64,000 nucleotides of DNA from Thermodesulfovibrionia bacterium (GCA_919902995.1 CAKKSD010000008.1:10922-74921), one strand, 5' to 3'. Counted from the first letter of the stretch, positions 9,399-44,581 are shown. A program made the numbers and translations. Notes: generated by a model not told the origin, from the letters alone.

Positions 9399-9450
9399 AT
9401 TATTTAGCCTCCTATATGTTTAAGTCTTGTTAGATTATATATAACTCTTA

Positions 9451-9467: not shown

Positions 9468-9518
9468 AAATAAATAGCCTGCTGAAAAAGTCTCCTTTTA
9501 TTATAGAGTCGTCTTGTT

Positions 9519-9588
9519 TGTCATTCCGCACTTGATGCGGAATCCAGTCTTTTGTTTATTTCTGGATTCCTGTTTCCACGGGAATGAC
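9519..9588. repeat. hairpin-rich intergenic element (gtcattccgcacttgatgcggaatcc ... ggattcc...gggaatgac)
   Basis: Nested inverted repeats. The track's spurious ORF 9514..9717 translates it (VIPHLMRNP). Positioned as a likely terminator downstream of the WYL gene. Confidence 0.4.
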
Positions 9589-9623
9589 TACTTTTTTAAA
9601 GAAATGCGAGTTGTTAAACAAGC

Positions 9624-24218: not shown

Positions 24219-25292
24219 TTAATCCCATCCATATATAAAATCGGTAAGTTTCTTACTAACCTCATTTGCAATATCTTCTTTCATCCTGTTTAACGCCCTT
24301 TCTTCAGCGTCTTTTATGGTGAGATGTCCTTCTTTTCCTGAGTTATTGATACTCCCGATGACTTTTCTGGTACTTTTATCAATCAATTTAAAATTTGCTG
24401 TCCACCGCACAAACTTAAATTCGGGATTCTCAATATATACTTCTTTAAACTCTACTTCGCCCTTTATGCTCAGATCTTCCGTCTGGTTTCCTTTAGCAAC
24501 AGAAAACCCCTGTATATTCAATCCCTCAATGATGGCGTTCTTTACATCATCACCCTTTTCTCCTGTTACCTCTACTCCGATAGAAAAGTCATTTTTTAAA
24601 AAATTCTCGAGTTCAGTACTTATCTCTGAAAGGCTGATAGGGCTATCTATCCCAAGACCGGATAGATTAATAACCCTCAAATCTTTGTTATATGCCTCTC
24701 TTCGAAGTAGAATCCTGATAGCACCTTTCATGCTCTTTATCTTCTGAGTTTTATCTGTAATTTCTCTCCCCCTTTTAACCGTCTCTTCTGCCTGCAAGTC
24801 AAAAGAGTGAATCTGTTCTTTAAGGGAATTGCCTGCCTTTATCCTGTCTATAATTGCGAGGGCATAATAAACCTTTTGTTCGCTGTCATGCCATATCTCG
24901 ACTATAACAACATTCTCCAAAACCTTATCCGTAGTTACCTTCGTTATCCGCTCGATCTCCATTTCTTCCTGAGTATCAGTTTTATCCATTGCTTTGACCT
25001 GTGCATATCTTTCATAGTCCCTGCTGATTGAGGAAACATTAGCAGAAAATATCCTTGAAATAGCTCCATAGGCATCTTTCTCAGCAATCTCTCTTGTCTC
25101 TCCATAACCTACACCTATAAGGTACTGCTTCTCAGGATAAGAATTGCTCCGCCCATCCACCCAGTCGGGTTTCATTTCAGCAAAGGAAGAGATTGGCGCT
25201 ATAATAATTAGTGTCATAACAATAATATAAAACAGTTTCTCTTTTATCGTTTCCTTATATTTAAAACTCACATAAACTTTTACACTCATCAT
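24219..25292 (-). CDS. LPP20/FlgP-like lipoprotein family protein
   Basis: Signal peptide, then KQYLIGVGYGETREIAEKDAYGAISRIFS, the LPP20-domain pattern. Confidence 0.45.
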   Translation of the reverse strand: MMSVKVYVSFKYKETIKEKLFYIIVMTLIIIAPISSFAEMKPDWVDGRSNSYPEKQYLIGVGYGETREIAEKDAYGAISRIFSANVSSISRDYERYAQVKAMDKTDTQEEMEIERITKVTTDKVLENVVIVEIWHDSEQKVYYALAIIDRIKAGNSLKEQIHSFDLQAEETVKRGREITDKTQKIKSMKGAIRILLRREAYNKDLRVINLSGLGIDSPISLSEISTELENFLKNDFSIGVEVTGEKGDDVKNAIIEGLNIQGFSVAKGNQTEDLSIKGEVEFKEVYIENPEFKFVRWTANFKLIDKSTRKVIGSINNSGKEGHLTIKDAEERALNRMKEDIANEVSKKLTDFIYGWD

Positions 25293-25309
25293 GCCTTTAT
25301 CCTCAATTC

Positions 25310-26314
25310 TTATCTGCTCAGTGGGATGTTGCGGAGAACGGCTTTAGAGAGTTTACCATCCCACCTGGGATGTATAAAATCAACGACAATATTTGCATAT
25401 TTTGCTACTGATGAAACCTCATCATACCGTAGCACTAAATTCATAGATAAATTTGGTGGGACATCATGCCAGATATCAAAAATATAAATTGCACCATATT
25501 CCCTTGCACTCCTATTTTTCCCAAACTGTGCTATTGCTACCGAGTATTGATTACCCAAATCATCAACCATAATAGAGTTAGTGGGGCTGTGGATAATAAT
25601 ACCAATTTCTCTAGTTTTTTGGTCATTGTTTATTACAGATATACTACATGTTACTTTTTGTCCAGATACCTTGCATTCCTTTGCTTCAAAAATAAAATCT
25701 TTTACCTCAACTTTTGGCATCGCTTTTGGTTGTGAGGGTTTAGTTATAGTCGTGCCAGTTTCAGTTATCCTTCCACTTTTCATAAGTTTCACAATAGCAT
25801 CGCTCTTCTCAAGAAACGAGCTTGCTACTGCAAGCACATTTGCACGCTCTGTCCCTAACATCCGAATATTAATGTCAACTTCTCCTCCCAAATCGGTAAT
25901 CGTCCCTATCACGAGCGCATCAGCACCCAGAACCTTTCCAATAGACTGGGCAGTTTTATCGTCAATTATGCCTGTCATGCCGAGTCTCATCTCCTTTAAG
26001 GCAGATTCAAGTCGGGTTCGCTCTACAACCTCAAATTTATCCCGATAGCGAAAAAGACTGTTAGTTAATTTATCGGAAAGATATAAACCAAGCTCTGTTA
26101 TTTCCCCTGTCTGGAGTGTAAAATTCATAACAGCGACCCTTCTTTTATTCTGTTCCAGCATGGTTGAAGATATCTGCTGAGATAGTTGCGAGATGACTGT
26201 ATTAACATCCACCTTTTTAGACTGTTCTGTTACCTGAACCTGCGATTGGGTTGTAGCACAGCCAATTATGAAAAATACTGCTACTAAGGAATTTAATATA
26301 TATCTCCGCATCAT
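25310..26314 (-). CDS. CsgG/LpoB-like periplasmic lipoprotein
   Basis: Lipoprotein signal MMRRYILNSLVAVFFIIGC. RVAVMNFTLQTGEITELGLYLSDKLTNSLF...VVERTRLESALKEMRLGMTG...GADALVIGTITDLG matches the CsgG/LpoB fold pattern. The track's N-terminal extension to 26470 runs through a hairpin repeat and is rejected. Confidence 0.45.
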   Translation of the reverse strand: MMRRYILNSLVAVFFIIGCATTQSQVQVTEQSKKVDVNTVISQLSQQISSTMLEQNKRRVAVMNFTLQTGEITELGLYLSDKLTNSLFRYRDKFEVVERTRLESALKEMRLGMTGIIDDKTAQSIGKVLGADALVIGTITDLGGEVDINIRMLGTERANVLAVASSFLEKSDAIVKLMKSGRITETGTTITKPSQPKAMPKVEVKDFIFEAKECKVSGQKVTCSISVINNDQKTREIGIIIHSPTNSIMVDDLGNQYSVAIAQFGKNRSAREYGAIYIFDIWHDVPPNLSMNLVLRYDEVSSVAKYANIVVDFIHPRWDGKLSKAVLRNIPLSR

Positions 26315-26329
26315 CTTCACACTCCTATC

Positions 26330-26394
26330 TGTCATCCCAAACTTGTTTCTGGATCGCATGATAATAGATGCTGAAACAAGTTCAGCATGACAAC
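26330..26394. repeat. hairpin repeat family, copy 1 (gtcatcccaaacttgtttctggatc...gctgaaacaagttcagcatgacaa)
   Basis: Homologous to 55626-55696. Both sit in the 5' leader of minus-strand genes. Confidence 0.55.
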
Positions 26395-26538
26395 CCTTGG
26401 GAAGGTGTTCGCCATGAGTGAACGTATATCTCGTTCCCTTTTCTAATGTCTCCCGCGTATCCTCCATCATGTCTACCTTTTCCTTTTCAACTTCTTTAAA
26501 AAATGAAACCTCTTGGTTTTAATCCCCATCTTCTTCCA

Positions 26539-27126
26539 TTATTCACCTCTCAGTTTTTTCTCCTCTTTTTCGAGCAGTTCGTGCAGGCGTTCTGCATTCT
26601 TTCTTATGTAGTCTCTGGTTTTGGGATCGAGCGCCCTTACTTTCTCAAGGTTGGCTTTGAATCCTTCAAGGTCAAGTCTTGCAAGGGCATATAATTCTTC
26701 TGTTACAGGGTGTTGCCAGTGGTCAACAATTTCGACATTTGATAGGGTCGATGCAGTAACCGTCTTTATTGCCTGCTCTACATGCTGCTCTTCTGCCGTA
26801 ACCCTGACATCGCCTGCCATTGTGGATGCCATGTAGTCCCTCATTAGAGATGCGGTGTAATACTCAAAGAGTTTCGTTATATCATTCCTTGCCCTGTTTT
26901 CGGCAGTTGCTCTCAGCAGAGAATAGTTCTTTATCCCCATCGCAGAGGCGACTCCATAAAATACCTTTCCCCTTTCACTTGAAAAGGCGCCGCTACCCTT
27001 AATCACCCATTCCGGCGCATTCCATTCTTGAATGGGTGTTGTTTCAGTTATCTTCTTGCTTGCACATCCCGTGCTTAAGACCAATCCCAGCAATAAGACA
27101 ATAAAAAGTCTTACCATCCTTTTCAT
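26539..27126 (-). CDS. LPP20-family lipoprotein
   Basis: Lipobox LVLSTGC. FYGVASAMGIKNYSLLRATAENRARNDI is the LPP20 signature. Confidence 0.5.
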   Translation of the reverse strand: MKRMVRLFIVLLLGLVLSTGCASKKITETTPIQEWNAPEWVIKGSGAFSSERGKVFYGVASAMGIKNYSLLRATAENRARNDITKLFEYYTASLMRDYMASTMAGDVRVTAEEQHVEQAIKTVTASTLSNVEIVDHWQHPVTEELYALARLDLEGFKANLEKVRALDPKTRDYIRKNAERLHELLEKEEKKLRGE

Positions 27127-27692: not shown

Positions 27693-28031
27693 TCAGATAC
27701 TCCTCCTGAAAAATATAGATCTAAGAATACTGATAAGAAGTCTAAAAGGTGCGATGAGGATATTGGAGATCAGAGATGCCACCACTGAATCAGCAGCATT
27801 TCTGCCAAAAATCAATCTTGCCATCCATTGAAATAGAAGGAGTGTGAGGGTAACACTTAAAATTAACAAAAGCCAGTTGTCTAATCCTTTTATCTCAGAA
27901 CTGAGAAAGGGCAGAATAATTGCACTCAGAAGAATAACCCCCAAAAGATTAAAGGCAACCCTCAGCCTCATTGCTCCTATCATCAGGAGAAATCCTGTTA
28001 TGAGAATCCCGAGTGTTAAGATCTCGTACAT
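27693..28031 (-). CDS. small integral membrane protein (112 aa)
   Basis: Three predicted hydrophobic helices. Overlaps the radical SAM gene start by 16 nt. Confidence 0.3.
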   Translation of the reverse strand: MYEILTLGILITGFLLMIGAMRLRVAFNLLGVILLSAIILPFLSSEIKGLDNWLLLILSVTLTLLLFQWMARLIFGRNAADSVVASLISNILIAPFRLLISILRSIFFRRSI

Positions 28032-29182
28032 TCTTTTCCTCTCTGTATCTCAGGATAACCTGAGGAAGTTACAATCAATCCAGATTTGTTTGTATAATCC
28101 AATACCTGAATGATTTCTTTTAAGCTGATGCATCGGTTCATTTCTTTGTCCTCTGATGTTACCCTCCATAACGGGAGATATTGCCCCATCGGATGGAAGA
28201 TAACCCGATCCTTTAAATGCTGTGAAAGATATTTAATAAGTGGCCTTTGACAGCAATCCCAGTGCCCTGGCAATATTAAATGACGCACTATTACTGGTGA
28301 AAAAGCATTAGTATTACAGATAGCTTCCAGTGCAGACATAGCGGTCTCTTTGTAATTAGGTGCTTGACTCAGATAAAGGGCACAATTGTTATTAAAATAC
28401 TTAAAATCAAATACCCATATATCTACCAATCCCCATAAAAGCATATATAACGCAGGAGACGAATATCCGTTTGTATGCCATACTATAGGCAGATGGGATG
28501 CCCAGTCAGGTGATTGCTCCAGAAAATCCAAGACACTTAAAAGTGACTGATCAGGGTTCCCGCCTAAAAAGGAAATATTACTGAACTCCTCCTGATGATA
28601 CTCATTCTTTAGAACATCCCAGAGGGCAGGAGTAAATGGTTTGACTCTAACATCTTCCGGGTTTATCAATTCTCCTTTCTGGCAGAATTTGCATCTCATG
28701 TTACACCCTGTAAGCTCTATGACGAGAGTCCTGCCTATCTCTTCCTCTTCTCCCACATGTATAAAATGTTGATGATAAAAAGAAGGACTTCCCATCGGAC
28801 ATTCACCCATAATTGCCCTTTTCCCTTTACACCTATACCCACATAGGCAACATCGTTTTAGAAATCTTTTCAAGAGGGTTCTTTTAAGTTCAAAGAGGCT
28901 ATAGCCATAATCATTCTTTTTGCCTTCACCTGATAAGGCTTCCTTCACCTTCTCATTATGAACAGCAAGGAGTCTCTTATGTCCTCCGTGCAGGGATAAC
29001 GGAATTCTATAATCCCTTAGGAGCTTGTATCTTGGCGACAACTCAGGGTAATACCTTGAGCATTGGTTTTCAGGTAATTTGATGCCAAGGCGTTTTAAGA
29101 CTGTAATCTCTAATGGTGATGGGTCCTCAACTATCGCTGTTCCATCTCTCTCTATAAAAAGTCTAACTTCTTGTTTTGGCAT
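28016..29182 (-). CDS. radical SAM protein (activating-enzyme-like) with an additional Cys cluster
   Basis: CNMRCKFCQ (CxxxCxxC) preceded by CCLCGYRCKGKRAIMGECPMG. 388 aa. Confidence 0.6.
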   Translation of the reverse strand: MPKQEVRLFIERDGTAIVEDPSPLEITVLKRLGIKLPENQCSRYYPELSPRYKLLRDYRIPLSLHGGHKRLLAVHNEKVKEALSGEGKKNDYGYSLFELKRTLLKRFLKRCCLCGYRCKGKRAIMGECPMGSPSFYHQHFIHVGEEEEIGRTLVIELTGCNMRCKFCQKGELINPEDVRVKPFTPALWDVLKNEYHQEEFSNISFLGGNPDQSLLSVLDFLEQSPDWASHLPIVWHTNGYSSPALYMLLWGLVDIWVFDFKYFNNNCALYLSQAPNYKETAMSALEAICNTNAFSPVIVRHLILPGHWDCCQRPLIKYLSQHLKDRVIFHPMGQYLPLWRVTSEDKEMNRCISLKEIIQVLDYTNKSGLIVTSSGYPEIQRGKECTRS

Positions 29183-29194
29183 AGATATATACCT

Positions 29195-29998
29195 TCATTT
29201 TTTTATTTGAATGACATCCTGTTTCTTCTTAATCTGATGTCCTGAATTCCTGTTTCTATTTGGCTCCTTTAGTTTTTGAGAAATCAACTGGTGAATCAGG
29301 TCGCACTTCGGTCTTCTGGACTTCCTTGTGTCAACGTGTACTACAGCACTCTCTTTATCAATCTTAATTTCTATATTGTTCTTTTCTTTATCATTGGCAG
29401 TAATCACATTGCTCTTACCTTTTTCCTCAACTGTAACTTTTAACCCCATTTCCTCCAGCACCAGTGAGATCTCCTGTGTGGCAAATCCCTGGATAGAGGA
29501 CTGAATCAGGTCATTGCTTTCCGAAATAAGGCCTATACCATCAGAAGAATTAACTACAAACAGCCTCTCAGAGGTCAATGGATTAAAGGCAACGGACAGA
29601 CCCAAATCAGGAGTGGTGACCTCAGGATTAAGCTTAAAACCCTGTCCTTCAAGCATATGTGCGAGGCCATCGAAATTAGAAATAGGCGTATAAGCCATCT
29701 TGAGGTTTTCAACAGGGTATTTCCCCTCTTTGCATAACTTGTACACCTCTTTACAACCCTTTACTGTGCCGGCGCCTATCTCCCAGCAGACGGCTCCAGC
29801 GGCTTTAGCTGTTATAGCAATTACTCCTGCTGCAACAGCGCATGTCCCAGCAACAACATCTGACAAACCTGAGTCAGTAAAAACATCTGATAAACTTGTG
29901 GGTGTTGTAGAAACTGGAACCTGTTTTGACTCTGACATATAAAACCCTCCTATTTCTCCGGTGGCAACCCGGCTGGTTTGCAGTATGCCCTTGCCCAA
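29195..29998 (-). CDS. hypothetical protein with Gly/Ala/Cys-rich segment
   Basis: VAGTCAVAAGVIAITAKAAGAVCWEIGAGTVKGCKEVYKLCKEG is encoded by a locally GC-rich patch (about 29750-29900). Confidence 0.35.
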   Translation of the reverse strand: MGKGILQTSRVATGEIGGFYMSESKQVPVSTTPTSLSDVFTDSGLSDVVAGTCAVAAGVIAITAKAAGAVCWEIGAGTVKGCKEVYKLCKEGKYPVENLKMAYTPISNFDGLAHMLEGQGFKLNPEVTTPDLGLSVAFNPLTSERLFVVNSSDGIGLISESNDLIQSSIQGFATQEISLVLEEMGLKVTVEEKGKSNVITANDKEKNNIEIKIDKESAVVHVDTRKSRRPKCDLIHQLISQKLKEPNRNRNSGHQIKKKQDVIQIKK

Positions 29999-31476
29999 TT
30001 CCTTAATGGGTCATACTGGGCCTTCATGGTCTCAACTCTCCCTCTGTTTTCATCCACCAATTCCATAAGTCTATTTTTGAATTGCTCGCTATCAGGGCTA
30101 TACTTGTAATGCCTGGATTCAACGATAACCTCATTTATCAGCCACACAAGGTCTGCACCGCTAAAATAACAGGTCTTTTCTGATAGTTCCTTTATCAGGT
30201 TCTCCGGGACATTTACACCTTTTCTTTCAAAGTTCGCCTTAGAGATTTTATGCCTTGCCTCATAACACGGCTCTCCAACCCAGTAAATTTGAGAGAACCT
30301 GCCCTTCCTGGTGAGTGCAAGGCCATGCTGGGGATCAAGGTTATTTGCAGATGCAAGCAAAAATATTGGCGCATTTGTATCGTTCAACCAGGTAAACAAT
30401 ATCCCCATAGCCCTCGTCATGGTGCCACCATCCATTTCGTGTCCGCTACTTACAGCCTTTTCAAACTCATCCATGTAAAAGACGCATGGGGCAAAGGTTT
30501 CAAGAACCTTGCAGAGGTTGTACATATTCTTTTCCGTTTGTCCCACCAGAGAGTTCATAATAGAACTGATATTAAATGAGATGGCAGGATAACCAAGTTG
30601 ATAACCGAGATATTTTGCCAGAAGACTCTTCCCTGAACCCGGTGTTCCGATAAGGAGCCAGCCCTTTTCCCTATCCTGTCCCTCTGCACAGATTAGGTGA
30701 CTGTGAACCTTAAGATCCTCCATGAGGAAATCTAAGCCATAGGGTATATCATCACTGGTGGGTTTCAGGATACTCATCCCCAATGTATGTGCAAGGATTT
30801 CCTCCTTCTGACGATTAAGATAATCAAGGAGTCCCTTTTGTATGTCCATATTATCCTTGCACCTATCCAGTGCGATTCTTAGCATCTGTTGTGACCCTGT
30901 ATAGGTCAATCCCAGAAGTGCAGAGGATAGTTCTGCCTCCTTATCACTTAGCTCTATCTTTGCCTGAAGCATCTCCCTTCTTACCATCGGGATTAGTTCC
31001 TCCCTTGAAGGATAAAGCTCTGTCACTGAGCTGATGTATGGGGCTACAATATTAGGATATTGAGTTCCCAGTGGTTCCAGAAACACTAAGAACTTCCTGG
31101 TAGCCTTTGGACTCAGAAGGAACTGGGGTATAAAGCACCTTACCGATGGTTGACCGTCTCTATCATCGAGCCTCTGGGCAATATCCCAGAATATAAAAAC
31201 AGCCAGGGTATTGCGGCTCTTTTCAACCGTCTCAAGAGATTTCTCAATAGAGAGTTCCTGTGGTTGTCCCCAATCTGCCCTGTCCCAGAAGTATTCTGTG
31301 ATTCTGTCAGGTCTTACCATGTAAAGGGCAGGCTTCTCTTCACTGTTCATAAGCATGATCATATCAACGATCTCATGGGTGGTGTGGACAAGGTCTGGTG
31401 TCTCTATTTTTATAGCCCCATTTTCACCGTTTGTCCTGATACGGGTAAATACATCTTGGATTTTACTTGGTATCAT
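29950..31476 (-). CDS. AAA+ ATPase (classic clade) with large N-terminal domain
   Basis: Walker A GTPGSGKS, Walker B VFYMDEFEK, second region of homology ASANNLDPQHGLALTRKGRF. 508 aa. Confidence 0.7.
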   Translation of the reverse strand: MIPSKIQDVFTRIRTNGENGAIKIETPDLVHTTHEIVDMIMLMNSEEKPALYMVRPDRITEYFWDRADWGQPQELSIEKSLETVEKSRNTLAVFIFWDIAQRLDDRDGQPSVRCFIPQFLLSPKATRKFLVFLEPLGTQYPNIVAPYISSVTELYPSREELIPMVRREMLQAKIELSDKEAELSSALLGLTYTGSQQMLRIALDRCKDNMDIQKGLLDYLNRQKEEILAHTLGMSILKPTSDDIPYGLDFLMEDLKVHSHLICAEGQDREKGWLLIGTPGSGKSLLAKYLGYQLGYPAISFNISSIMNSLVGQTEKNMYNLCKVLETFAPCVFYMDEFEKAVSSGHEMDGGTMTRAMGILFTWLNDTNAPIFLLASANNLDPQHGLALTRKGRFSQIYWVGEPCYEARHKISKANFERKGVNVPENLIKELSEKTCYFSGADLVWLINEVIVESRHYKYSPDSEQFKNRLMELVDENRGRVETMKAQYDPLRNWARAYCKPAGLPPEK

Positions 31477-31482
31477 ATCTTC

Positions 31483-32151
31483 CTATTCCTCCTCTTTGAA
31501 GATGATTTGAGTCACCTTCGCTGTCTTTAATTCCTCAGGGAGTTTTACCGTAATTTTTAGTCCCTTTTCATTCAGAACCTTTCCCCACTCACGCCATTCC
31601 TTATAGGGTACATAGAAGGCATAGGTTTCAACACCTTTTAATCCATCCCATGGGAAATCAGAAGGCGGTGGAACAACCTCTATATCCTGAGGGAAATAAT
31701 CAGGCATGGAGTGTTTCATATCAGAGAAGACGAGTAAAACCTTTTTCCGGGATTTTGCCTTTCCTAAGAAGTATAATGCCTTATTTACAGCATCCGTTAG
31801 ATTTGTAAACATAGCTGTTTCGTTTCTGAGTCTATTTGAGAGGTCATCATAAGCCCTCTGGAGGTCTCTTGATAATCCACTGTATATAATAGTTGCCTTA
31901 GTATCTATCATGACAAGACTCACTTCAGCCTCAGGATATTTTGCAGCCACATGCTGGAAGACACCTTTGACCTGAACAAGGGTATCCTCGATGAATGGTT
32001 TATATGAGATGGAGTTGTCAAAGAGGATTACCACCTGGATGTCCTGAAGGGATTCGTCCTGCGCCATTATTGCCTTAGCCTTCTTAAGCCTTTCACTATC
32101 ACATGCTGTTAGGCTTAACAAGATTGTTCCTAAAATCAATATTTTTCTCAC
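31483..32151 (-). CDS. vWA-domain lipoprotein
   Basis: Lipobox LSLTAC and MIDAS-like DNSIS (VVILFDNSISY). Confidence 0.5.
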   Translation of the reverse strand: MRKILILGTILLSLTACDSERLKKAKAIMAQDESLQDIQVVILFDNSISYKPFIEDTLVQVKGVFQHVAAKYPEAEVSLVMIDTKATIIYSGLSRDLQRAYDDLSNRLRNETAMFTNLTDAVNKALYFLGKAKSRKKVLLVFSDMKHSMPDYFPQDIEVVPPPSDFPWDGLKGVETYAFYVPYKEWREWGKVLNEKGLKITVKLPEELKTAKVTQIIFKEEE

Positions 32152-33251
32152 CTTAACACCTCCATGTGGTTATTCATCTTCTCATAAAACTCTCTTGTAT
32201 AAATCAGGTACAAAATCTCACCGGTTTCTGGGTCACGCCTCTCTTCTACAACATAGAGGTCAGGATATTGCCTTGCTATATTGGGTGTTATAGTATCACC
32301 ACCACCGATAACTCTCACAGGCTGGTCAGTCAGAGAGAGAGGCTCAGCCTCTATTCCTTGATCAAGTGTTTCTGTTGCCGGGGTCGCATAGTTTTCTGAA
32401 TTCATGTTACCTTTCTCTCTTGGCGGAGTACCCTCTATTACAGGTGTTGGAGTTAAACCTGCCTGTCTCGAAGCTTCCATAAGAGTGGATTCCTGTTGGC
32501 GATTCCAGAACCTTCTGATACTTTGGGATAGCCCCGATAATCGCTCACTGCCTCTACCAATAACCTCCTCAATTCTGTCCTCAATTTTACTAAGATTAGT
32601 CATTACATGCAGGAAAAACACCTCCGTTAAGAGTGAAGCTATTATATGAAAGATTAATAGTACAAATGGAAAAATGATTACTATTTTTCTATAAAACTCC
32701 CCTTCATGTCTCTTTAGGATGATATTAAAATCTGGAGTTGTTTGTTGTATTACCTTTATAGCATCCCCCTGTAGAACTTTCTGGAAGTCCATAGGCCAAA
32801 AGTACTTTGCCATTTGCATCTGAGTCACAGGTATCATCCACAGGTTGAATAAACCACCATAGAGGAGTAAAGCTATAACGGTTGTTATTATTAAAGGCTG
32901 TAACAATGAAATAACTTCAGTTTGATTTCGGTTCAAAATGAGCCTTTGTGTGGTTCCTATAACTCCTATAAGGCTATAAATAATATAGAAGGTTCCTATA
33001 AACATTAACATAGTTGTTGCAAAACCAAATACCATACCAGGGCTTATATACCCGGATGGAATTCCTAAAAATGTCAGTAATGCTTCAATCTCCTTAGGGA
33101 ACTTCACATTAGGAAGTGCCAATTTTGCACCACTAGCCTCAATATGCATGGTGGAGATAATTACTGACAAATCCACAATGACCACAAAGAATAAAAATCC
33201 CAGAAATCTTAGTGTGGAAATAATATTGTTGATATTGATTCTTTCTGGCAT
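32148..33251 (-). CDS. polytopic membrane protein with C-terminal soluble domain
   Basis: Multiple hydrophobic helices and a hydrophilic 100-aa tail. Overlaps the vWA gene start. Confidence 0.4.
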   Translation of the reverse strand: MPERININNIISTLRFLGFLFFVVIVDLSVIISTMHIEASGAKLALPNVKFPKEIEALLTFLGIPSGYISPGMVFGFATTMLMFIGTFYIIYSLIGVIGTTQRLILNRNQTEVISLLQPLIITTVIALLLYGGLFNLWMIPVTQMQMAKYFWPMDFQKVLQGDAIKVIQQTTPDFNIILKRHEGEFYRKIVIIFPFVLLIFHIIASLLTEVFFLHVMTNLSKIEDRIEEVIGRGSERLSGLSQSIRRFWNRQQESTLMEASRQAGLTPTPVIEGTPPREKGNMNSENYATPATETLDQGIEAEPLSLTDQPVRVIGGGDTITPNIARQYPDLYVVEERRDPETGEILYLIYTREFYEKMNNHMEVLR

Positions 33252-33450
33252 TATACTTTACCTCCTTTCCTCTTTTGCTACATCATCATATGGTACAGCC
33301 AGATACCATGGTATGAAAAAAACACTTTTGATAACTGCTACCAGTGCAATTAATGCTAAAAATATTATTAAAACCTCTATGACCATCTTTTATCCTCCAT
33401 TTTTATAAATTTCAATTTTTAATTGGCAAACCTTTGTTCCAATTTAAACA

Positions 33451-33999
33451 TCAAATAACCTCATCTATTAACCCAAACTCCTTTGCCTCTTCTGATGTCA
33501 TTTCTTTCGCCTCTCTGCATGCCTTTATAACTTCTTCCATTGTCCTACCTGTCCTTTCAGTAAGAATCTTATAAATAGATTGTTGGTCTCTTTTAGTATC
33601 GTGCAGGGTTTTCTCTAAATTCTCCTCAAATTCATGCCATTCCTTAGTTGTCTTTATGTTATGTAAGACTATCTGGCTATGTCTAAGTGCCTTTCTCGTC
33701 TTGCAGGCCTGGAGGACAATTGATGCCATAGAGTTTGCGCACCTGAACACTATCCCTGTAATAGGAGCCTTTGAGTGCCTCACGATATCGTAGAGGTCTA
33801 AGCCTGCTGTCACAGTCCCCCCGGCACTATTTATATAAAGGATTATCTCACTTGAATCGTCCTGGGCATTCAGCCATAAGATAGATGAACCAATCCATTT
33901 AGCCATCTCATGGGTAACTTCTCCCTCTATATAGAGGGTTCTCTTTTTAAGAAGGTCATCCAGGAATTTTTCCCGGTTCATATCATTTACTTGGCACAT
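33451..33999 (-). CDS. ClpP-family (S14) peptidase-like protein
   Basis: ILYINSAGGTVTAGLDLYDIV / CANSMASIVL / IVLHNI align with ClpP LYINSPGGVITAG / GQAASMG / VMIHQP (Ser and His present). The Asp position is not obviously conserved. Confidence 0.65.
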   Translation of the reverse strand: MCQVNDMNREKFLDDLLKKRTLYIEGEVTHEMAKWIGSSILWLNAQDDSSEIILYINSAGGTVTAGLDLYDIVRHSKAPITGIVFRCANSMASIVLQACKTRKALRHSQIVLHNIKTTKEWHEFEENLEKTLHDTKRDQQSIYKILTERTGRTMEEVIKACREAKEMTSEEAKEFGLIDEVI

Positions 34000-34002
34000 T
34001 TT

Positions 34003-34344
34003 CTACTCCTTTGGTTTCCACCTTTGATTTATTCTGAATATCTCTTTACCAATATGGGAAGATAAAGCCTGACAGCATTCATTCTCAAGAACATCTTTTG
34101 TCTCTTTATACTCTAACTCCATAGCCTTTTCACCGCATTCAGTAAGCGTCTCTTTTGCCCTGTCTACAATTTTGAATGTCGGAGGGGTCTGTATGCTCCC
34201 ATCTTTGGCAAAGAACCAGATTACATTAATCCAAGACTCGATCCTCTTAGCCCACTCTCTCTCAAACCTTTCAGGATCTTCCTGAGCAAGCCTTGCTAAG
34301 AACTTCCTGCGTCTTTCTTTCCTTCTTGTTGTTGCTTTACCCAT
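34003..34344 (-). CDS. hypothetical protein with basic N-terminus (113 aa), first gene of the operon
   Basis: ORF only. The MGKATTRRKERRRK tail suggests nucleic-acid binding. Confidence 0.3.
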   Translation of the reverse strand: MGKATTRRKERRRKFLARLAQEDPERFEREWAKRIESWINVIWFFAKDGSIQTPPTFKIVDRAKETLTECGEKAMELEYKETKDVLENECCQALSSHIGKEIFRINQRWKPKE

Positions 34345-34510
34345 ATTTTCTTTTTCCTTTAAATAAACACTTTTGGTGTTTATTCCTGCCTATTCGGTTA
34401 GCCCTTTCGGCTTATTTATAATTTCTATCTTGCTATACCTTTAGCATAGTCCTTCGCATATTAAAATCCTGCACATATCCGTTTTATATCTTTCTTAATT
34501 CTTTCCCCTT

Positions 34511-34857: not shown

Positions 34858-35067
34858 AATATAGTTTCATAAATAACGATGAAAAAATAAAAATTACATA
34901 ATGGTTCGAAAAAGATACTCAGGCTGATAAGCTGTCGCTGAATCTTTTGGGGTATTGAATTTCTCTACATGTATCCTCATGATTGCAGGATACGAGAAAT
35001 TCTGGAGGAATACTATTACAGGATTATCCGAAGATTATCTTTGAGAACTTTAAGATTAGGATAGGTT

Positions 35068-35949
35068 TTATTTGTTCTTCTGGGGAGATTTGAAATTTAA
35101 TGCCTTTTCTATCAAGTCTAATCTTTCTTCTATATCTTTTTTAAATTTTTCAAATTGCGATTTGGTAACATATGGGTTTTTGGGAATCCTTGGGTCTGAG
35201 AGAGGAACTACCGAACCTATTACCAGTTTAAGCTGCCCTTTTGCACAGCTCTCTTTAGTTAAAATACCCCAAGTATTCCAGTCGGTTCCTTCACGGGCAT
35301 TATTATTAATCATGTTATGTGCCTTATTTAATTGATCTGAGGCGAGTGCAACACTAACAGGTCTATTTGGTGAGGATATACAATCCTGAATAGCCTGTTT
35401 TGCAGTTATCGGGATATTAATACCAAAAGATTTCTCTCCCATGGAAAGAGTTATAGTCTCCATTCCATCGTATTCTAAGTGCCAGCCCTTATTTTCACAA
35501 TCCTCAATAACAGCTCGAGAAAGATTTTTCAGTTTTCCTTGAGTGTCTGTAGAAGAGAGTTCCTTTTTGACAACATAGTGAATAACATTGCGTTTATGTC
35601 CTAAACTAATTTTAGTTCCAGTTTTAGTAACGCGGGTTAATACAATAACTTTTAGCTCTGGTCTGTTCTTTATTAAGTCTTTTGCGATTTCATCTCCCTG
35701 TTTTTTCTGCCGAGTAAATTCAATATCAAGTAATACTAATTTAATATTGTTATCCTTCTTCGCAGCATCGATTCCTTCTTCACCAAGAGTTTCAAATACT
35801 ACTTCGTAAGGAGTCAACTTATAAATGCCTTCAAGAATTTGTTTTAAGGTTGTATTTACAGAAGTATCAATTATTTGATCGGGGGTATCATCAATGCATA
35901 ATATTTTAGTTTTAGCCATTGCTATCTTCTCCCTTGATTTTGTTTTCAA
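35068..35949 (-). CDS. receiver (REC)-like domain protein with unknown C-terminal domain
   Basis: KILCIDDTPD...KLVLLDIEF...KVIVLT shows the Asp, Asp, Thr, Lys spacing of a CheY-like fold. Confidence 0.4.
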   Translation of the reverse strand: MKTKSREKIAMAKTKILCIDDTPDQIIDTSVNTTLKQILEGIYKLTPYEVVFETLGEEGIDAAKKDNNIKLVLLDIEFTRQKKQGDEIAKDLIKNRPELKVIVLTRVTKTGTKISLGHKRNVIHYVVKKELSSTDTQGKLKNLSRAVIEDCENKGWHLEYDGMETITLSMGEKSFGINIPITAKQAIQDCISSPNRPVSVALASDQLNKAHNMINNNAREGTDWNTWGILTKESCAKGQLKLVIGSVVPLSDPRIPKNPYVTKSQFEKFKKDIEERLDLIEKALNFKSPQKNK

Positions 35950-36541
35950 GCCTTTTGCCTATTCCATGTGCTATCGAAGACCAATCCTTTTCTTTTTCAA
36001 TATCTTTTGTTGTATCCTCTATTTCCTTTGTTAGCTTTTTATCCTTTAAATAATTGCCTGTCGTGTGTAATATTTCTATGCACCGTTCCTTATCTTTAAG
36101 CAAATCATGGCTTAACAGCTTTAGTAAGTATCCTTTATAACCAGAATCACTTCCGCAGATAGCTTTCCTTATAGCCTGACTGGAAATAGGAATCATATTT
36201 TTTAATAAATCAATAAACTCCTTCAGGTTAAAAGGAATCCTTATATAGGCATGATTATAAGGATGGTCATGAAATATTGGGAACTCCTTTTCAAAAGATT
36301 CCTTTTCCTTAAATCCAATTACAACAATAGGATTAAGGTGTTTTGACCTTATCGTTTCATAAAACAACTCGTGTATTCTATCTTCAGGGGTTGATATTAG
36401 TACCACTCTATTTTTTTTCTTTAAAGAGTCATTCGTAAATAGAAGCACGGTCATGCTGCCTACTGCACTTAGTGCCCTTTTAAAGGATTTATAAAGTTCT
36501 TCATTTTTAGAGATAAAAACTATTTTTTTATTACTTCTCAT
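35912..36541 (-). CDS. hypothetical protein (209 aa), possibly degenerate receiver-like
   Basis: KIVFISKNEE...VVLISTPED...PIVVIGF alternate as in a flavodoxin-like fold. Confidence 0.3.
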   Translation of the reverse strand: MRSNKKIVFISKNEELYKSFKRALSAVGSMTVLLFTNDSLKKKNRVVLISTPEDRIHELFYETIRSKHLNPIVVIGFKEKESFEKEFPIFHDHPYNHAYIRIPFNLKEFIDLLKNMIPISSQAIRKAICGSDSGYKGYLLKLLSHDLLKDKERCIEILHTTGNYLKDKKLTKEIEDTTKDIEKEKDWSSIAHGIGKRLENKIKGEDSNG

Positions 36542-36657
36542 ATATTGTCCTTCTCACTATCTCTTGTGTCCTCTAAGCTTAAATTATCTTATATCTTATA
36601 ACACAAAAGAATATCTCAGAGATATCCCTTAAATATTACCTTATGTAGAACAAATCT

Positions 36658-39384
36658 TTAAGGCTTACTCTTTGCCCTCAAATATTCTTTTGTCAGGCGG
36701 AATGAAACTTTATTGCTTTCTATTTCTACTGGTGTATACATCTCGGGCTTTAAAGTACCGAAGGGTGAATCGATACTTCCATCATCCATTTTAACTCCGA
36801 GCCACAAACCATCTTTAAATGGCGGACAGAACTTTCTCTCATCTTCTTCATGCGAAAGCCTGGACTTAATTAGATTTAAGAAAAATAGTGGAATCTGTCT
36901 TTTTATTCTATCAAGACATAATACAAAATAGAGATATCTAAAAAGATTATGAGTTTTTTTAGCTTCTGCAGTTTGCAAATTGTTTTCAAGCATAAGAAAC
37001 ATCGCTTTCTTTAAGATGTCCTTATCAGCGAGGTCACAATATTCGTCCGCAAAAGAACAATCTTGTGGGCAAGCATTGTTGCAGATAGAATGAATCATAT
37101 CTTCCACTAATTTTGGTGTAAGTTCCCATTTTGAGCAAGGGTCTTGCCAATCAGTCTCCATATCTATACCAAGGGCTTTAAAGATAGCAAGAAAGGCAAA
37201 AAGTGCATCAGTAAATCTTAGATCAACATCTGGATGCGCAGCCGAATGACGAAGCTGGAAGGCAATAAAAGGATAGATATTCTTATCTTTTGACAATTTC
37301 CCTTTTGTTAATCTGATATACATTTTTAACGGGTTATAAATTTGAGAGTTTGTATCTCCTCTTTCCCAAACCAATTCTATGATGTTGCCCAACATTATGA
37401 GGGTTCCAATAAGATAGGACGAATCCCTCTCTTTAAGATATCTTTTTAAAGAAGAATACGCTGCTTCTAACAGCAGAACCGTTTCATTCCTCTTTATCTC
37501 GCCAATTGTTGAAAATCTATTGAAAGTTTCAATACCCTTCCAAATCTTTCTTAGGGCCTTCCTCTCCTGACATGTTGTATTTTCAATCAAATTCTTAAAC
37601 TCTGTATAGTATGCCACCGCTTCATTTTCACTCTGATATTTGCTTTCTTTTTGGAAATATCCATCTATTCCTCCTTTTATTTTTTCAGCATCTTTTATAT
37701 TGAAATGTCTGGTCGTTGCAGTAAAAAGAATTACCGGAACTGCAATATCTCTTTTTCTTATTTCTCTTAAAAGACTTATGCCACTGAACTCTTTATGCAG
37801 TGGTTTACCATGAGGATACTTTTTCTTTATCTCTTCATCTTCTTTTGTAAGGTATAAATCCAGCAAAATAAGATCATAATCGGTTAATCTGCGTGTAGCT
37901 TCATTTATTCTGGAGTCATTCAATAAATCATCCCCACTTTGCCATTCTTTGCCTATTGCCTCCACTATATCATTTCCGAATAAAACCTTAATGGTCTCTT
38001 CCCATCCTGCCTTTTTTGCTTCATCATCTATAAGTAATACCTTTTTACCTCGTAATATTTCCGAAAGAGGTCTTTCCACTGATAATTTGTGCGTCTGTTC
38101 TGATAATGTCTCATCGCCTGTATCAGTTATGCCTACTGCTATAGCATCGTAAATTTCAATTTCTTCCCAAGCATTTTTATCTCTTTCTTGCAATTTTTTT
38201 AATACTCCTCTATAGCTGGCGCTATCAATATTATCAACATAATAAGCACCTTTTAGGAGTGAATAAGGGGCGGTGAAATTTCTCCATGCGTGTTGCAGAA
38301 TACCTTCTGAGGTTAAATCACAGCTTTGTTTTATATACTCTTTCAGTGTTTGAGCGGACAATGATTTATTTGCATTTTTTTGTATCATGCTCATGACGTC
38401 TATTAAGGAGAAGGGAATAGTTACAAACTCAACACCTTTTGCAAGTAATACAAAGTATCTTCTGTCTTTTTCAATAAGATCCTGGAGTCTATTTAAGGAA
38501 ATAAAAATGACTGGAGGGGGATTATTTTTATATTTGATAATCTCTGCCCAATACCTTCTTACAAAATAAATATAATCGGAGTTGACTTCAAAGTCTAAAA
38601 TAATAATAAGGGAAACATCCTTTAGTAATTTTTCAACTGCTTTTTGTGCGGAATCGATAAATGATTTACACTCCCATAAATATGAATTCTGAGATGTTGT
38701 TTGTGAAAGCTCTAAATACCTCTTACTTCTCTCCTCTATCATTTCCTGCCAATATTCCTCTAATAATACTATATGAGCTCCTTCAGGTATTTGTAATATA
38801 AGGTTCTCCATTTCTTTTACTATAGACACATATTTTTTATAAAACTCCATTAATCTCATGGCATTTTGTCTTTTTAATCTATCCTCTATTCCCTCAAGAT
38901 TATTTAGTCTGTTATTCTCTATAGCTTTTTTTTCATTTTCTAAATTTTGTTTTTTTATCACTAATAAATTAAAATTCTCTATTATTTCGGGCATTCTTAT
39001 GTTACCTTCGCTCTTTTTATATGCCCCTGCCATAATTTCCCCCAGCCTATTTATCTCCCTCCCTATTAAATCAATTTGTTCCTGCAACTGACTACATATA
39101 TCCTCTGTTAATCTTTCAAGTTCTTCGTTTATTTTCGTCTTTTTACTCTGCTCAAGTCTGTTATTTAAACTTGTTTGTAGTTCCTCTGCCTTTTTTTTAA
39201 ATTCCTGTGGTAATTCTCTAAAAGCATCTGATATTTGCCTTTGTATTTCCAATAGAACTTTACTATAAGATATGATCTGAAGATCATATTGGTTGTAAAA
39301 AAGTGAGTTTAATGCCCTTTGAAGTGATATGGAGGTTTCGTTAAGGCCATCAGAAACAATCAACACTTTCCTTTTCTTATCCAT
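36658..39384 (-). CDS. large multidomain protein (908 aa) with central REC domain and coiled-coil region
   Basis: KKVLLIDDEAKK...DLILLDLYL...PVILFTATT...GYFQK is a canonical receiver. RHSAAH near the C-terminus could be an Rx4H HEPN-like motif (speculative). Confidence 0.5.
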   Translation of the reverse strand: MDKKRKVLIVSDGLNETSISLQRALNSLFYNQYDLQIISYSKVLLEIQRQISDAFRELPQEFKKKAEELQTSLNNRLEQSKKTKINEELERLTEDICSQLQEQIDLIGREINRLGEIMAGAYKKSEGNIRMPEIIENFNLLVIKKQNLENEKKAIENNRLNNLEGIEDRLKRQNAMRLMEFYKKYVSIVKEMENLILQIPEGAHIVLLEEYWQEMIEERSKRYLELSQTTSQNSYLWECKSFIDSAQKAVEKLLKDVSLIIILDFEVNSDYIYFVRRYWAEIIKYKNNPPPVIFISLNRLQDLIEKDRRYFVLLAKGVEFVTIPFSLIDVMSMIQKNANKSLSAQTLKEYIKQSCDLTSEGILQHAWRNFTAPYSLLKGAYYVDNIDSASYRGVLKKLQERDKNAWEEIEIYDAIAVGITDTGDETLSEQTHKLSVERPLSEILRGKKVLLIDDEAKKAGWEETIKVLFGNDIVEAIGKEWQSGDDLLNDSRINEATRRLTDYDLILLDLYLTKEDEEIKKKYPHGKPLHKEFSGISLLREIRKRDIAVPVILFTATTRHFNIKDAEKIKGGIDGYFQKESKYQSENEAVAYYTEFKNLIENTTCQERKALRKIWKGIETFNRFSTIGEIKRNETVLLLEAAYSSLKRYLKERDSSYLIGTLIMLGNIIELVWERGDTNSQIYNPLKMYIRLTKGKLSKDKNIYPFIAFQLRHSAAHPDVDLRFTDALFAFLAIFKALGIDMETDWQDPCSKWELTPKLVEDMIHSICNNACPQDCSFADEYCDLADKDILKKAMFLMLENNLQTAEAKKTHNLFRYLYFVLCLDRIKRQIPLFFLNLIKSRLSHEEDERKFCPPFKDGLWLGVKMDDGSIDSPFGTLKPEMYTPVEIESNKVSFRLTKEYLRAKSKP

Positions 39385-39437
39385 CGCGGACTCCTCAACA
39401 GGAAATATCTTTATAAAATTTTATTTTTTAATTCTAT

Positions 39438-40223
39438 CTATTCATTACTTCTATAGCTTTCTCTAAGACATTCAGCAAGGGCGCAATACCAGTCGTGGAA
39501 GGAGTTAATCTCCTTGTCCTTCCAAGAATCTTTTAAAAGCCTTTTGGGATCGTTTTCTCTTTTAATAAGGTTTTGGAAAAAAACCTGAGCATCATTAATG
39601 ATGCCACTAAGCCTATTTTTATCTATTCCCTCGATTTCCGACAGTTCTTTTATCTTCGATTGTAATATTCCAAATTTATCATAATAATCAGTATTGTCAT
39701 TATACATTTGGTTTAAGTAATCTCCTTTTTTATTTTCTTCCAAAAGTTCCAATGCCTGCATGTCTATGTCGAGAGGGAGGAAGAGGTGGAGGAGATAGGT
39801 TGTAATCTCTGACAGTTTTTCTTTAGATCTCCACGAGTCTCGCAAGCTTACTATTGTATTTACATTCCAATTACCCTCATTACATTTCTCTTTTACATAA
39901 CTACCTACACCGCAGATGTCAAACCATTTACATTGTCGAGCAATATTAATAAATTCTGAAGCCTCGGATTTGCCTATTTTAAGGACAAGTCCTGAAGGAA
40001 ATTTGCTATTTATAGCAGTAATTTTTTCTTTCAGCTCTGAGCTGTCTATACCAGAGGCAGATAGATGCCATAACAGAACTATATTTTTAGGGTCGCTTGA
40101 AGACTTTAAGAATGATTCAATCGTATCAAAATGCGATCTTAATTTTTGAGGAAATTTCCCTTCCCCAAAAAAATCATTGAAAAAACTCTCTTTCTCAACT
40201 GTTATAAAGGTATAATTAGACAT
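39438..40223 (-). CDS. hypothetical protein (261 aa)
   Basis: ORF in a tight operon. No family recognised. Confidence 0.35.
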   Translation of the reverse strand: MSNYTFITVEKESFFNDFFGEGKFPQKLRSHFDTIESFLKSSSDPKNIVLLWHLSASGIDSSELKEKITAINSKFPSGLVLKIGKSEASEFINIARQCKWFDICGVGSYVKEKCNEGNWNVNTIVSLRDSWRSKEKLSEITTYLLHLFLPLDIDMQALELLEENKKGDYLNQMYNDNTDYYDKFGILQSKIKELSEIEGIDKNRLSGIINDAQVFFQNLIKRENDPKRLLKDSWKDKEINSFHDWYCALAECLRESYRSNE

Positions 40224-40226
40224 ATT

Positions 40227-42098: not shown

Positions 42099-42721
42099 AA
42101 TTTTTCACCAGTCTTATTTAAAGGCCCTAAACCATTTTCGCCACATGCTTTCTCTCGATCATCTGTAAAAAAACAATCGTGTTGCTCATTCGATAAAAAT
42201 AACTCTCTAGCAGTTTGTTGCAAAAAACAAGCTGTAACATGACGAGATATATATTCTTTAATATCCTCAATATCCTCTATAGGCTGAAGTCTTGAAAATA
42301 AGAGGAATGAACCAATTTCTTTCTTGGAACAGTAGCCACGCTCCTTATCAATTTTTTGAAAACAGCCTACTACCTTAATTGGGATATTGAGGCAACTTTT
42401 GGCTACACTGATATGAGGAATGCTGTCTTTCAGTTCTTTGCAGGATTCGCAATGTTCACGATTTAGCCACCATGAATTTTTTGAGGTTTTTAGAAGTCTT
42501 TTTAAATCATTTTTTTGCTTTTCTAATAAACAACTTGTAGCTATTATATCTTCTTCTATATAGGCAGCACCTAACGTAAGATCAAAAAGAGGTTGGAAAT
42601 ATTGTAAGAAAATTCGGAAAAGGTCATTACTGGGATATATCGAAACTAAATCAGCATAAATATATGAAAAGATTACATCGATATCTGTCTTATCTCTTGG
42701 TGCATCAGGCAAAAGAGACAT
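42068..42721 (-). CDS. hypothetical Cys-rich protein (217 aa)
   Basis: HCESCKELK...CLNIPIKVVGC...CSKK Cys pattern. Confidence 0.3.
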   Translation of the reverse strand: MSLLPDAPRDKTDIDVIFSYIYADLVSIYPSNDLFRIFLQYFQPLFDLTLGAAYIEEDIIATSCLLEKQKNDLKRLLKTSKNSWWLNREHCESCKELKDSIPHISVAKSCLNIPIKVVGCFQKIDKERGYCSKKEIGSFLLFSRLQPIEDIEDIKEYISRHVTACFLQQTARELFLSNEQHDCFFTDDREKACGENGLGPLNKTGEKLCKRWAVKKI

Positions 42722-42739
42722 ATCATTCCCCTAATTGAT

Positions 42740-44574: not shown

Positions 44575-44581
44575 TTCTGAG

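Follow-up and report, generated by a model that had tools for sequence, protein, structure and literature searches.

A conserved AAA+, vWA and radical SAM gene cassette as a candidate envelope effector associated with type III CRISPR-Cas loci

The locus described here brings together a radical S-adenosylmethionine (SAM) enzyme, an AAA+ ATPase, a lipoprotein with a von Willebrand factor A (vWA) domain, a polytopic membrane protein and an orphan protein. The genes lie on the minus strand of a 64,000-nucleotide (nt) stretch of DNA from a Thermodesulfovibrionia bacterium (GCA_919902995.1, CAKKSD010000008.1:10922-74921). This whole stretch is called the window, and coordinates given without a locus name are counted from its first letter. 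An earlier note, made from the sequence alone, had described an eight-gene operon in the minus-strand run 34344-27693. All eight of the open reading frames (ORFs) listed for this run were located at their coordinates, and the operon and its domain calls were borne out by the ORF coordinates and by searches of the cassette proteins against Pfam, NCBIfam, PHROGs and PADLOC. Five of the genes formed a conserved cassette. In our judgement, there is an even chance that this cassette is an envelope-spanning, five-component defence or stress effector that is functionally tied to type III CRISPR-Cas.

The DNA around homologues of the AAA+ ATPase, the orphan protein (termed X) and the radical SAM enzyme was gathered, and every window protein was compared with every locus. 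The core consisted of the polytopic membrane protein TM367 (32148-33251; 367 amino acids (aa), approximately four transmembrane (TM) segments), the vWA lipoprotein with a metal ion-dependent adhesion site (MIDAS) (31483-32151; 222 aa, extracytoplasmic by its sequence signals), the tandem AAA+ ATPase (29950-31476; 508 aa), X (29195-29938; 247 aa) and a radical SAM enzyme of the PflX/PflA-activase type (28016-29182; 388 aa), all of which were encoded on the minus strand. These five genes co-occurred in every locus that was long enough (approximately 15 independent loci), with a partial exception in L024, where an AAA remnant, X and the radical SAM gene only were present. The co-occurrence of the five core genes in all sufficiently long related loci shows that the gene run is not fortuitous. 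Three gene orders were observed: TM-vWA-AAA-X-radical SAM in most loci, TM-AAA-X-radical SAM-vWA in Heliophilum, and AAA-TM-vWA-X-radical SAM in L018/L019. Moreover, the five genes remained together across AAA identities of 33-96%, the lowest value (33%) being that of L025. A shuffled order with a constant gene set is strong evidence for a joint function of the five genes.

Genes for cas or CRISPR-associated proteins lay within approximately 5 kb of the cassette in 8 of the approximately 15 independent loci. As cas loci fill well under 1% of a genome, this enrichment was large when judged against that genome fraction. L006 and L008 contained complete type III-E loci (Cas7-11, Csx29, Csx30, Csx31 and an RpoE-like CASP-sigma) that were divergent from the cassette. 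The E-values of the type III-E NCBIfam models ranged from 1e-39 to 1e-198; in L008, only Cas7-11 and Csx29 attained these values, and the sigma match was weak (5.6e-4). L003 encoded Cas10/Csm1 (6e-172) of type III-A together with a full-length homologue of the SAVED-Lon protease CalpL (PDB 8b0r/7qda, 8e-30), and its cassette was abutted by a CRISPR array with 13 or more repeats. Heliophilum (L001) had Cas6, a short CRISPR array abutting the cassette and a reverse transcriptase fused to a CRISPR-associated PrimPol. The latter fusion was also found in L017/L022, Cas1 and Cas6 were neighbours in L019, and the most divergent locus (L025) encoded a DxTHG CRISPR-associated protein (TIGR02221). A CARF protein was likewise counted among the CRISPR-associated neighbours of the eight cas-adjacent loci. 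In L024, from a Firmicutes metagenome-assembled genome (MAG), an ORF at the contig end (L024:3-236) joined a Cas1-like N-terminus to the tail at the C-terminal end of the cassette AAA, and it was followed by X and the radical SAM gene. This locus is apparently a deletion-degraded cassette beside cas1, or an assembly artefact. As a separate observation, the CalpL homologue of L003 (L003:2815-6284) was followed by proteins of 267, 236 and 151 aa, whose sizes and positions were as expected for CalpT and CalpS.

A promoter motif pointed to the same connection. Csx30 sequesters the extracytoplasmic function (ECF)-like sigma factor CASP-sigma, and cleavage of Csx30 by Craspase relieves this block (Strecker et al., Science 2022; PMC10028731). 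The CASP-sigma motif, which was obtained by chromatin immunoprecipitation sequencing and reporter assays, is TCACATT-N13-CGAC, equivalent to TCACAT-N14-CGAC (PMC10028731, Table S2), and it lies upstream of cas1 and two genes without known function in Desulfonema ishimotonii (PMC10028731). All loci and the window were scanned for this motif. Perfect TCACAT-N15-CGAC matches on the cassette strand were found in the leader between csx29 and the cassette at L006:7085, L008:7143 and L008:7838. The site in L006 was 24 nt upstream of a 35-aa ORF that directly followed this CASP-sigma-type promoter and was homologous to the small ORF s1 of the window, and the site at L008:7838 was ahead of a gene for a mini membrane protein (mini-TM). 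The number of matches expected by shuffling was 0.03 for L006 (observed 1) and 0.01 for L008 (observed 2). When 209 kb of unique loci were scanned on both strands with spacings of N14-16, there were four perfect matches in total, three of which were the leader sites of the L006 and L008 cassettes; the N15 spacing was identical in all three. L008 also contained a tandem pair of near-matches and, on the opposite strand, a site with one mismatch that pointed at csx29. The cassette in L006 and L008 therefore carries, as judged from the motif matches, a candidate CASP-sigma promoter. A more specific proposal, which is put forward tentatively, is that the cassette is the downstream effector operon of CRISPR sigma-factor signalling (Craspase-Csx30-CASP-sigma and, by analogy, CalpL-CalpT-CalpS) and a new envelope machine, and that versions with a ClpP-like peptidase swapped the CRISPR input for a proteolytic control of their own.

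Several results weigh against a CRISPR-linked envelope effector. The spacing was N15 here and N14 in D. ishimotonii, and it was fixed after the hits had been seen. The window had neither cas genes near the cassette nor a CASP-sigma motif near it, and therefore the CRISPR link is indirect for this locus. The cas adjacency may also reflect co-location in defence islands, since defence systems cluster anyway. Searches of Pfam, NCBIfam and PADLOC, and fold searches of X and the AAA, revealed no CARF or SAVED sensor among the cassette proteins, no defence-system model in PADLOC or NCBIfam covered the cassette, and the neighbours of the L003 CalpL gave no sigma or anti-sigma signal in Pfam, NCBIfam and PDB sequence searches. 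On the structural side, the models were of moderate confidence (predicted local distance difference test (pLDDT) values of 67 and 74, the latter for the AAA), and the outward position of the TM367 loops and the cytoplasmic position of its linker and C-terminal domain were inferred from hydropathy and the positive-inside rule. The cassette might instead be a stand-alone defence system that shares islands with CRISPR-Cas but is uncoupled from it, and that senses infection by itself, for example through the outward vWA domain. The absence of cas neighbours from several loci, including the window, L010, L020, L021, L005 and L023, fits such a system, and so do nearby toxin-antitoxin pairs and NYN, HerA/DUF87 and AddAB-like genes. 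The two type III-E-adjacent cassettes have perfect CASP-sigma motif matches in their leaders, however, and the cassette abuts directly on a CRISPR array in L003 and L001; both facts are difficult to reconcile with a stand-alone system, which was considered doubtful. The link to phage defence that the earlier note had raised is consistent with the genomic contexts.

The properties of the individual proteins were compatible with a machine at the membrane. The AAA+ ATPase matched PF00004 (2.7e-19), and its best NCBIfam neighbours were CDC48, FtsH and PAN, which placed it in the classical clade and not with MoxR. It also matched the PADLOC IetA profiles (2.7e-17) and phrog_8638 (5e-44). Its N-domain of 270 aa had been called unique; in the AlphaFold2 model (pLDDT 74 overall, 80-90 in the N-domain), it resembled a degenerate AAA+ fold. 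The first domain, D1 (residues 1-232), was modelled as a beta-alpha-beta domain with a helical lid, in which KIETPD occupied the place of the P-loop and FIFWD that of Walker B; according to this model, D1 is a degenerate AAA+ fold without a P-loop. D1 was also considered as an AAA repeat detectable in sequence, and a profile-profile comparison of the N-terminal half with the C-terminal half gave nothing, so the AAA+ assignment of D1 rests on the structure model. The second domain, D2 (residues 265-500), contained Walker A (GTPGSGKS), Walker B (DE 336-337), arginine fingers (R390/R393) and an aliphatic S-L-V-G pore loop, and it is predicted from these motifs to be an active classical-clade AAA. 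Given the AAA+ fold of D1 and the intact motifs of D2, the protein would therefore be a tandem of a dead and a live AAA. Between 273 and 300 residues of the model aligned with the tandem AAA proteins Pex1/6, Rix7 and Yta7. The C-terminal tail was conserved, also in loci without ClpP.

The vWA protein had a weak VWA_2 match, and its MIDAS residues (D45/S47/S49/D144) were invariant across 9 homologues. A lipobox was conserved in most loci, including the Firmicute Heliophilum, and the protein of L025 had a signal peptide together with a TM anchor at its C-terminus instead. Export signals of two kinds thus place the vWA domain outside the cytoplasmic membrane, where it would have no direct contact with the AAA. 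The start codon of the vWA gene overlapped the stop codon of the TM367 gene by 4 nt. TM367 had two best-conserved loops, a variable linker of low complexity and, at the C-terminus, a conserved domain of approximately 55 aa (alignment A5 and hydropathy). In front of it, the window encoded a 42-aa mini membrane protein (33386-33258, minus strand), an ORF beyond those first listed, which corresponded to a split-off N-terminal module of TM367. The mini-TM was a separate ORF in L010, L020, L021, L006, L005 and L008, and it was fused to the N-terminus of TM367 in L003, L017 and L001; this fusion in three loci indicates that the product of the mini-ORF is a membrane subunit rather than a precursor peptide. 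These data also bear on the idea of an accessory maturation or chaperone machine, in which the AAA+ and vWA proteins form a cofactor-insertion pair and the radical SAM enzyme serves to mature a metalloprotein of the membrane or periplasm. AAA+/vWA pairs act as cofactor-insertion chaperones in NorQD, CoxDE, CbbQO and Mg-chelatase. The cassette AAA, however, is of the classical clade and not MoxR, and the exported vWA protein would not touch it. Furthermore, no client enzyme gene was kept beside the cassette, and the distribution was very sparse and mobile with cas neighbours. A maturation machine was accordingly regarded as unlikely.

For X, a length of 267 aa had been reported earlier; all homologues started at M21 (ATG at 29938), hence a protein of 247 aa, with a gap of 11 nt after the AAA stop codon. 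The alignment indicates that X almost certainly starts at M21 and not 20 residues earlier. Its conserved N-terminus was followed by an Ala/Gly-rich hydrophobic segment (residues 22-57) of variable length that passed the TM threshold, and then by a Cys-bearing helical hairpin, a TBP/KA1-like alpha/beta domain and a basic tail. The invariant residues in an alignment of 11 sequences (A2) included D203, R209, P210, C212 and Q217. A fold search with the X model gave TBP/KA1-like folds, the search of BFVD returned weak TBP-like matches only, and the X profile matched nothing among PDB sequences. In KA1 domains, the KA1 fold binds acidic lipids. A relationship of X to DUF1257 or DUF2997, which are partners of Ycf46-like AAAs, was tried with hhalign and was not significant. 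X and TM367 are orphan families, that is, two of the five core proteins belong to no described family.

The radical SAM enzyme contained the CxxxCxxC motif (C160/164/167), and the extra Cys cluster noticed before proved to be an invariant N-terminal C-x2-C-x3-C-x9-C (C111/114/118/128); C267 and C310/311 were further invariant cysteines. Its N-domain of approximately 120 aa was found in cassette members only. The nearest outside relatives were PflX/COG1313 proteins of 288 aa without this domain (approximately 30% identity), matches to NrdG2 and PflA were weak, and the closest solved structure was PflA (E 0.004). The scores for TIGR02493/TIGR02495 were 30-31 bits against cut-offs of 131-232, that is, below the level of the glycyl-radical activase family. 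No gene for a glycyl-radical enzyme was present in any locus, and alignment A2 of X showed no recognisable RVxG-type glycyl-radical motif. X is proposed as the substrate of the radical SAM enzyme because the nearest relatives of the enzyme are protein-directed activases and X is the only cassette-specific soluble/membrane protein.

A different substrate is assumed by a reading in which the cassette matures and exports a ribosomally synthesised and post-translationally modified peptide (RiPP), with the radical SAM enzyme modifying the product of a small ORF. Several small ORFs are indeed present in the operon, and a radical SAM-modified peptide effector was predicted in related AAA/vWA systems (Kaur et al. 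2020; PMC7159879). The best-conserved of the small ORFs, however, is the one for the membrane subunit, which three loci encode as a fusion with the TM protein, and the two upstream ORFs of the window were not conserved across the family. The first, s1 (34842-34699, minus strand; 47 aa, beginning MAAYNEKLTIDYF), is the probable first ORF of the operon and was identical in L010 (100% at the protein level). The second, s2 (34678-34511, minus strand; 55 aa), is an accessory that recurred, likewise identical (100% at the protein level), in the sister locus L010 only; L020 had an unrelated 55-aa ORF at this place. Neither s1 nor s2 had been in the first list of ORFs. The radical SAM enzyme, which was PflX/PflA-like, had no SPASM domain, and no exporter, transporter or leader peptidase gene accompanied the cassette. 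The peptide maturation-export system suggested by the earlier note has thus become a weak proposal, and we rate it as highly improbable.

The ClpP-like peptidase (33999-33451, minus strand; 182 aa) had been named by the earlier note in a triplet with the AAA and the vWA protein. It matched Pfam CLP_protease (7.6e-36), and its best NCBIfam ClpP models scored 99-120 bits against cut-offs of 249-309. Alignment to solved ClpP structures confirmed that the catalytic residues Ser90 and His113 were aligned and invariant. The Asp, which had been called unclear, was resolved as an invariant Ala164 with Glu163 adjacent, and a Ser-His-Asp triad was therefore lacking. The gene occurred in four loci only (the window, L010, L020 and L021), which formed one subclade with AAA identity of at least 86%, and the equally close L006 had no ClpP. 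Co-occurrence elsewhere was thus established for the five-gene core and only in part for ClpP. The four ClpP-bearing loci all lacked cas neighbours, and the eight cas-adjacent loci all lacked ClpP; as the ClpP loci are closely related, this exclusion is a single evolutionary observation. The ClpP-like peptidase is an optional accessory and not part of the conserved core.

A membrane-associated proteolytic machine centred on ClpP, in which the AAA feeds the peptidase, would fit the conserved Ser and His, the transfer of ClpP with the cassette into three genomic contexts and the IetA-like AAA, which recalls the ATPase-protease pairing of IetAS. The same transfer disagrees with the view that the gene is a housekeeping clpP paralogue, and no ClpX or ClpA gene was found in the operon. 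Nevertheless, approximately 11 of 15 loci, the closely related L006 among them, had no ClpP, the catalytic Asp was replaced by Ala, and the C-terminal tail of the AAA was kept in loci without ClpP. A ClpP-centred machine is very unlikely on this evidence.

A working model of the envelope-spanning effector can be outlined from these features. The vWA domain would be outside, TM367, the mini subunit and the three-TM protein TM112 would cross the membrane, and the AAA, X and radical SAM enzyme would be inside. TM367 and the mini subunit would present two conserved loops on the outer face, which could meet the membrane-anchored MIDAS-vWA lipoprotein, and the cytoplasmic tail domain of TM367 may recruit the hexameric tandem AAA+ unfoldase. 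The radical SAM enzyme would modify or activate X, a protein with a putative membrane-inserting Gly/Ala-rich segment and a KA1/TBP-like domain, and the AAA would unfold, extract or insert X or TM367. In type III-E loci, cleavage of Csx30 by Craspase would allow transcription of the cassette from CASP-sigma promoters. The expressed module may then have its effect at the envelope, where it could either disrupt the membrane (abortive infection) or block phage entry, the latter as in the unrelated HXS system. If the cassette is an effector operon of the CRISPR sigma factor, the radical SAM enzyme and the AAA+ would arm or insert X, and the outward vWA domain would engage the envelope or incoming phage components. 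The window would be a CRISPR-independent variant in which the ClpP-like Ser-His peptidase and small proteins were added at the 5' side, possibly, and this is speculation, as an alternative proteolytic control.

The cassette was rare. The AAA family comprised approximately 23 cluster representatives at 53-96% identity, and the next relatives, generic Ycf46-like ATPases, were at 28%. Among 185,579 species genomes (one genome per species), the AAA family was found in four, namely three Nitrospirota MAGs and the Firmicute Heliophilum fasciatum. A search of 1.84 billion representative proteins with the X profile gave 15 clusters and nothing more distant. The cassette occupied different chromosomal contexts, and in the window it was beside a low-GC island; it is proposed to be a rare, horizontally mobile module. 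No cassette relative was found in 2.9 million viral contigs, and the phage and plasmid collections contained only Ycf46-like AAA relatives of at most 31% identity, with no cassette carriage. These searches also bear on a prophage remnant in which the ClpP-like gene would be a head-maturation protease. The ClpP-like protein did match PHROG head-maturation protease families, in addition to the phrog_8638 match of the AAA. No capsid, portal or terminase genes were nearby, however, and the window is ordinary chromosomal DNA with genes for UvrA, HemA, RNase J, DnaG and a liv ABC transporter. Together with the viral, phage and plasmid searches, this makes a prophage origin extremely improbable.

The remaining genes of the operon were accessories. 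TM112 (28031-27693, minus strand; 112 aa, three TM segments) was frequent: it was present in L010, L020, L021, L006, L008 and L011, and it stood at the cassette front in L003. The basic 113-aa protein g1 (34344-34003, minus strand) had homologues in L010 and L021 and a 192-aa form in L008, where it was the first gene after a CASP-sigma-type promoter. Directly 5' of its gene, a leader element of approximately 30 conserved nt (34345-34420, minus strand; AGCCGAAAGGGC...CCGAATAGGCAGGA) was common to the window, L010, L021 and L008, which are divergent loci; it had no covariation and no Rfam match. Downstream of the cassette, a 148-aa lipoprotein-like protein (27671-27225, minus strand), found in L010, L020, L021 and L006 only, was a subclade-specific accessory or a mere syntenic neighbour. 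No Pfam, NCBIfam, PHROG or PADLOC family was matched by the polytopic membrane protein, the 113-aa protein, X or the small terminal membrane protein, and Pfam at E-values up to 10 gave nothing for the radical SAM N-domain, the TM367 C-domain, AAA D1, the X C-domain or the small ORFs. Scans of the operon for Rfam families, sigma-70 promoters and terminators gave nothing above background; a weak sigma-70-like site was present at 34885-34858, ahead of s1, where the window operon probably starts. No CRISPR array was found in the window.

Other genes adjoined the cassette in particular loci. A large DUF87/TrwB/TraG-like (HerA/FtsK-type) ATPase was encoded at L008:13769-16246, L011:7934-10369 and L025:333-2870 (37-61% mutual identity), and a different HerA-like protein of 996 aa at L005:14483-17473; the DUF87/HerA-type ATPase may be a further accessory partner. 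Upstream of the L020 cassette, one called gene (L020:1-4280) had both Rpb2 (RNA polymerase beta) and Rpb1 (beta') Pfam domains, which suggests an rpoB-rpoC fusion. The low-GC island of the window (GC 0.30-0.36, approximately 35000-44600), immediately upstream of the cassette, encoded two REC-like proteins (one of 293 aa, and one of 908 aa that gave a weak PDC-M60B match), orphan proteins of 209, 261, 623 and 217 aa, and a radical SAM/SPASM enzyme (42740-43789) with a SAM methyltransferase, followed by the liv ABC transporter. L023 had a REC-like protein of 955 aa upstream of its cassette, with no tblastn similarity to those of the window. Downstream of the window cassette (24219-27126, minus strand) were LPP20, CsgG/FlgO-like and LPP20 lipoprotein genes, which were not kept with the cassette elsewhere. 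A separate defence-like trio (7181-10604, minus strand) encoded a PDC-S11-like protein (346 aa, 1.6e-18), a Cas4-like PD-(D/E)XK nuclease (398 aa) and a WYL-domain regulator (326 aa, 4.8e-39).

The significance of the cassette lies mainly in its neighbours. Type III-E (Craspase) and CalpL signalling ends in the release of a sigma factor, the downstream protective targets of which are largely unknown; the proposed CASP-sigma targets in D. ishimotonii are only cas1, two unknown genes and nhaA. A cassette beside such modules, with a CASP-sigma motif, is a concrete and testable candidate for the missing effector arm. If this is true, a machine of radical SAM, AAA+ and extracytoplasmic vWA proteins would join the known immune effectors as a categorically new one. 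Even if the CRISPR link is island co-location, the cassette would clearly be a candidate for a new system of defence or envelope remodelling.

Literature searches returned no description of this gene set, which, together with the lack of a PADLOC or NCBIfam model, agrees with the earlier note, whose author could not assign the combined architecture. Radical SAM, AAA and vWA components are not mentioned in a census of type III effectors from 2024, and the CalpLTS papers name no CalpS regulon. Like the CASP-sigma targets cas1 and the two unknown genes of D. ishimotonii, the cassette bears a CASP-sigma motif in type III-E loci, and it adjoins CASP-sigma and CalpL-CalpT-CalpS modules divergently. 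Its genes, however, are unrelated to the D. ishimotonii targets (cas1, an EcsC-like membrane protein and nhaA), and unlike these modules the cassette is also found without a CRISPR locus, for example in the window.

Ycf46-like AAAs share the two-domain architecture with the cassette AAA over 75-97% of the length at 25-31% identity. They differ in their partners (DUF1257 and DUF2997, in Bacillus plasmids and phages), and the cassette AAA forms a tight separate clade, with identity falling from 53% inside it to 28% outside. One Ycf46-like AAA with 30% identity, on a Bacillus licheniformis plasmid (L026; NZ_CP035189.1, 139-150 kb), was accompanied by genes for DUF1257, DUF2997 and a 4Fe-4S-binding protein. 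The resemblance to IetAS consists of the match to IetA profiles and, in the window, of the pairing of the AAA with a serine peptidase, but the IteA_antiphage score was 58 bits against a cut-off of 510, no subtilisin-like IetS was present, and the protease of the cassette is ClpP-like and optional. The enzyme shares the radical SAM core and the N-terminal C-x2-C-x3-C-x9-C with PflX (COG1313) and PflA/NrdG, and it is called 'PflX' or 'putative PFL activating enzyme' in the source annotations; the extra N-domain and the absence of a nearby glycyl-radical enzyme gene set it apart. In the HXS system, a periplasmic effector matured by a radical SAM enzyme blocks the entry of phage DNA (PMC13128918). 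The combination of a radical SAM enzyme with an envelope-acting protein effector, which is proposed for the cassette, is an analogy only, because the cassette has no HxsA-D homology, HxS repeats or SPASM-type enzymes, and HXS has no AAA or vWA protein.

The FtsH-type vWA-MoxR ternary conflict systems were described by Kaur, Burroughs, Iyer and Aravind (2020, eLife; PMC7159879), and their effector can be a radical SAM enzyme. The FtsH component of these systems has an inactive N-terminal and an active C-terminal AAA copy (PMC7159879). The cassette has the same tandem of dead and live classical AAA+ domains, a divergent vWA protein and a standalone radical SAM enzyme, and both are predicted conflict systems. 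MoxR, by which those systems are defined, was absent from the cassette core and its flanking genes. Moreover, the cassette vWA protein is a short exported lipoprotein without a large alpha-helical N-domain, TM367 and X are obligatory, a CRISPR linkage is present, and the likeness of the radical SAM enzymes is one of gene type only. The closest concept is nevertheless this computationally predicted FtsH-type vWA-MoxR system, in the form with a radical SAM effector, and the cassette, although it lacks the defining MoxR, is rated as belonging with the AAA+/vWA-centred conflict modules.

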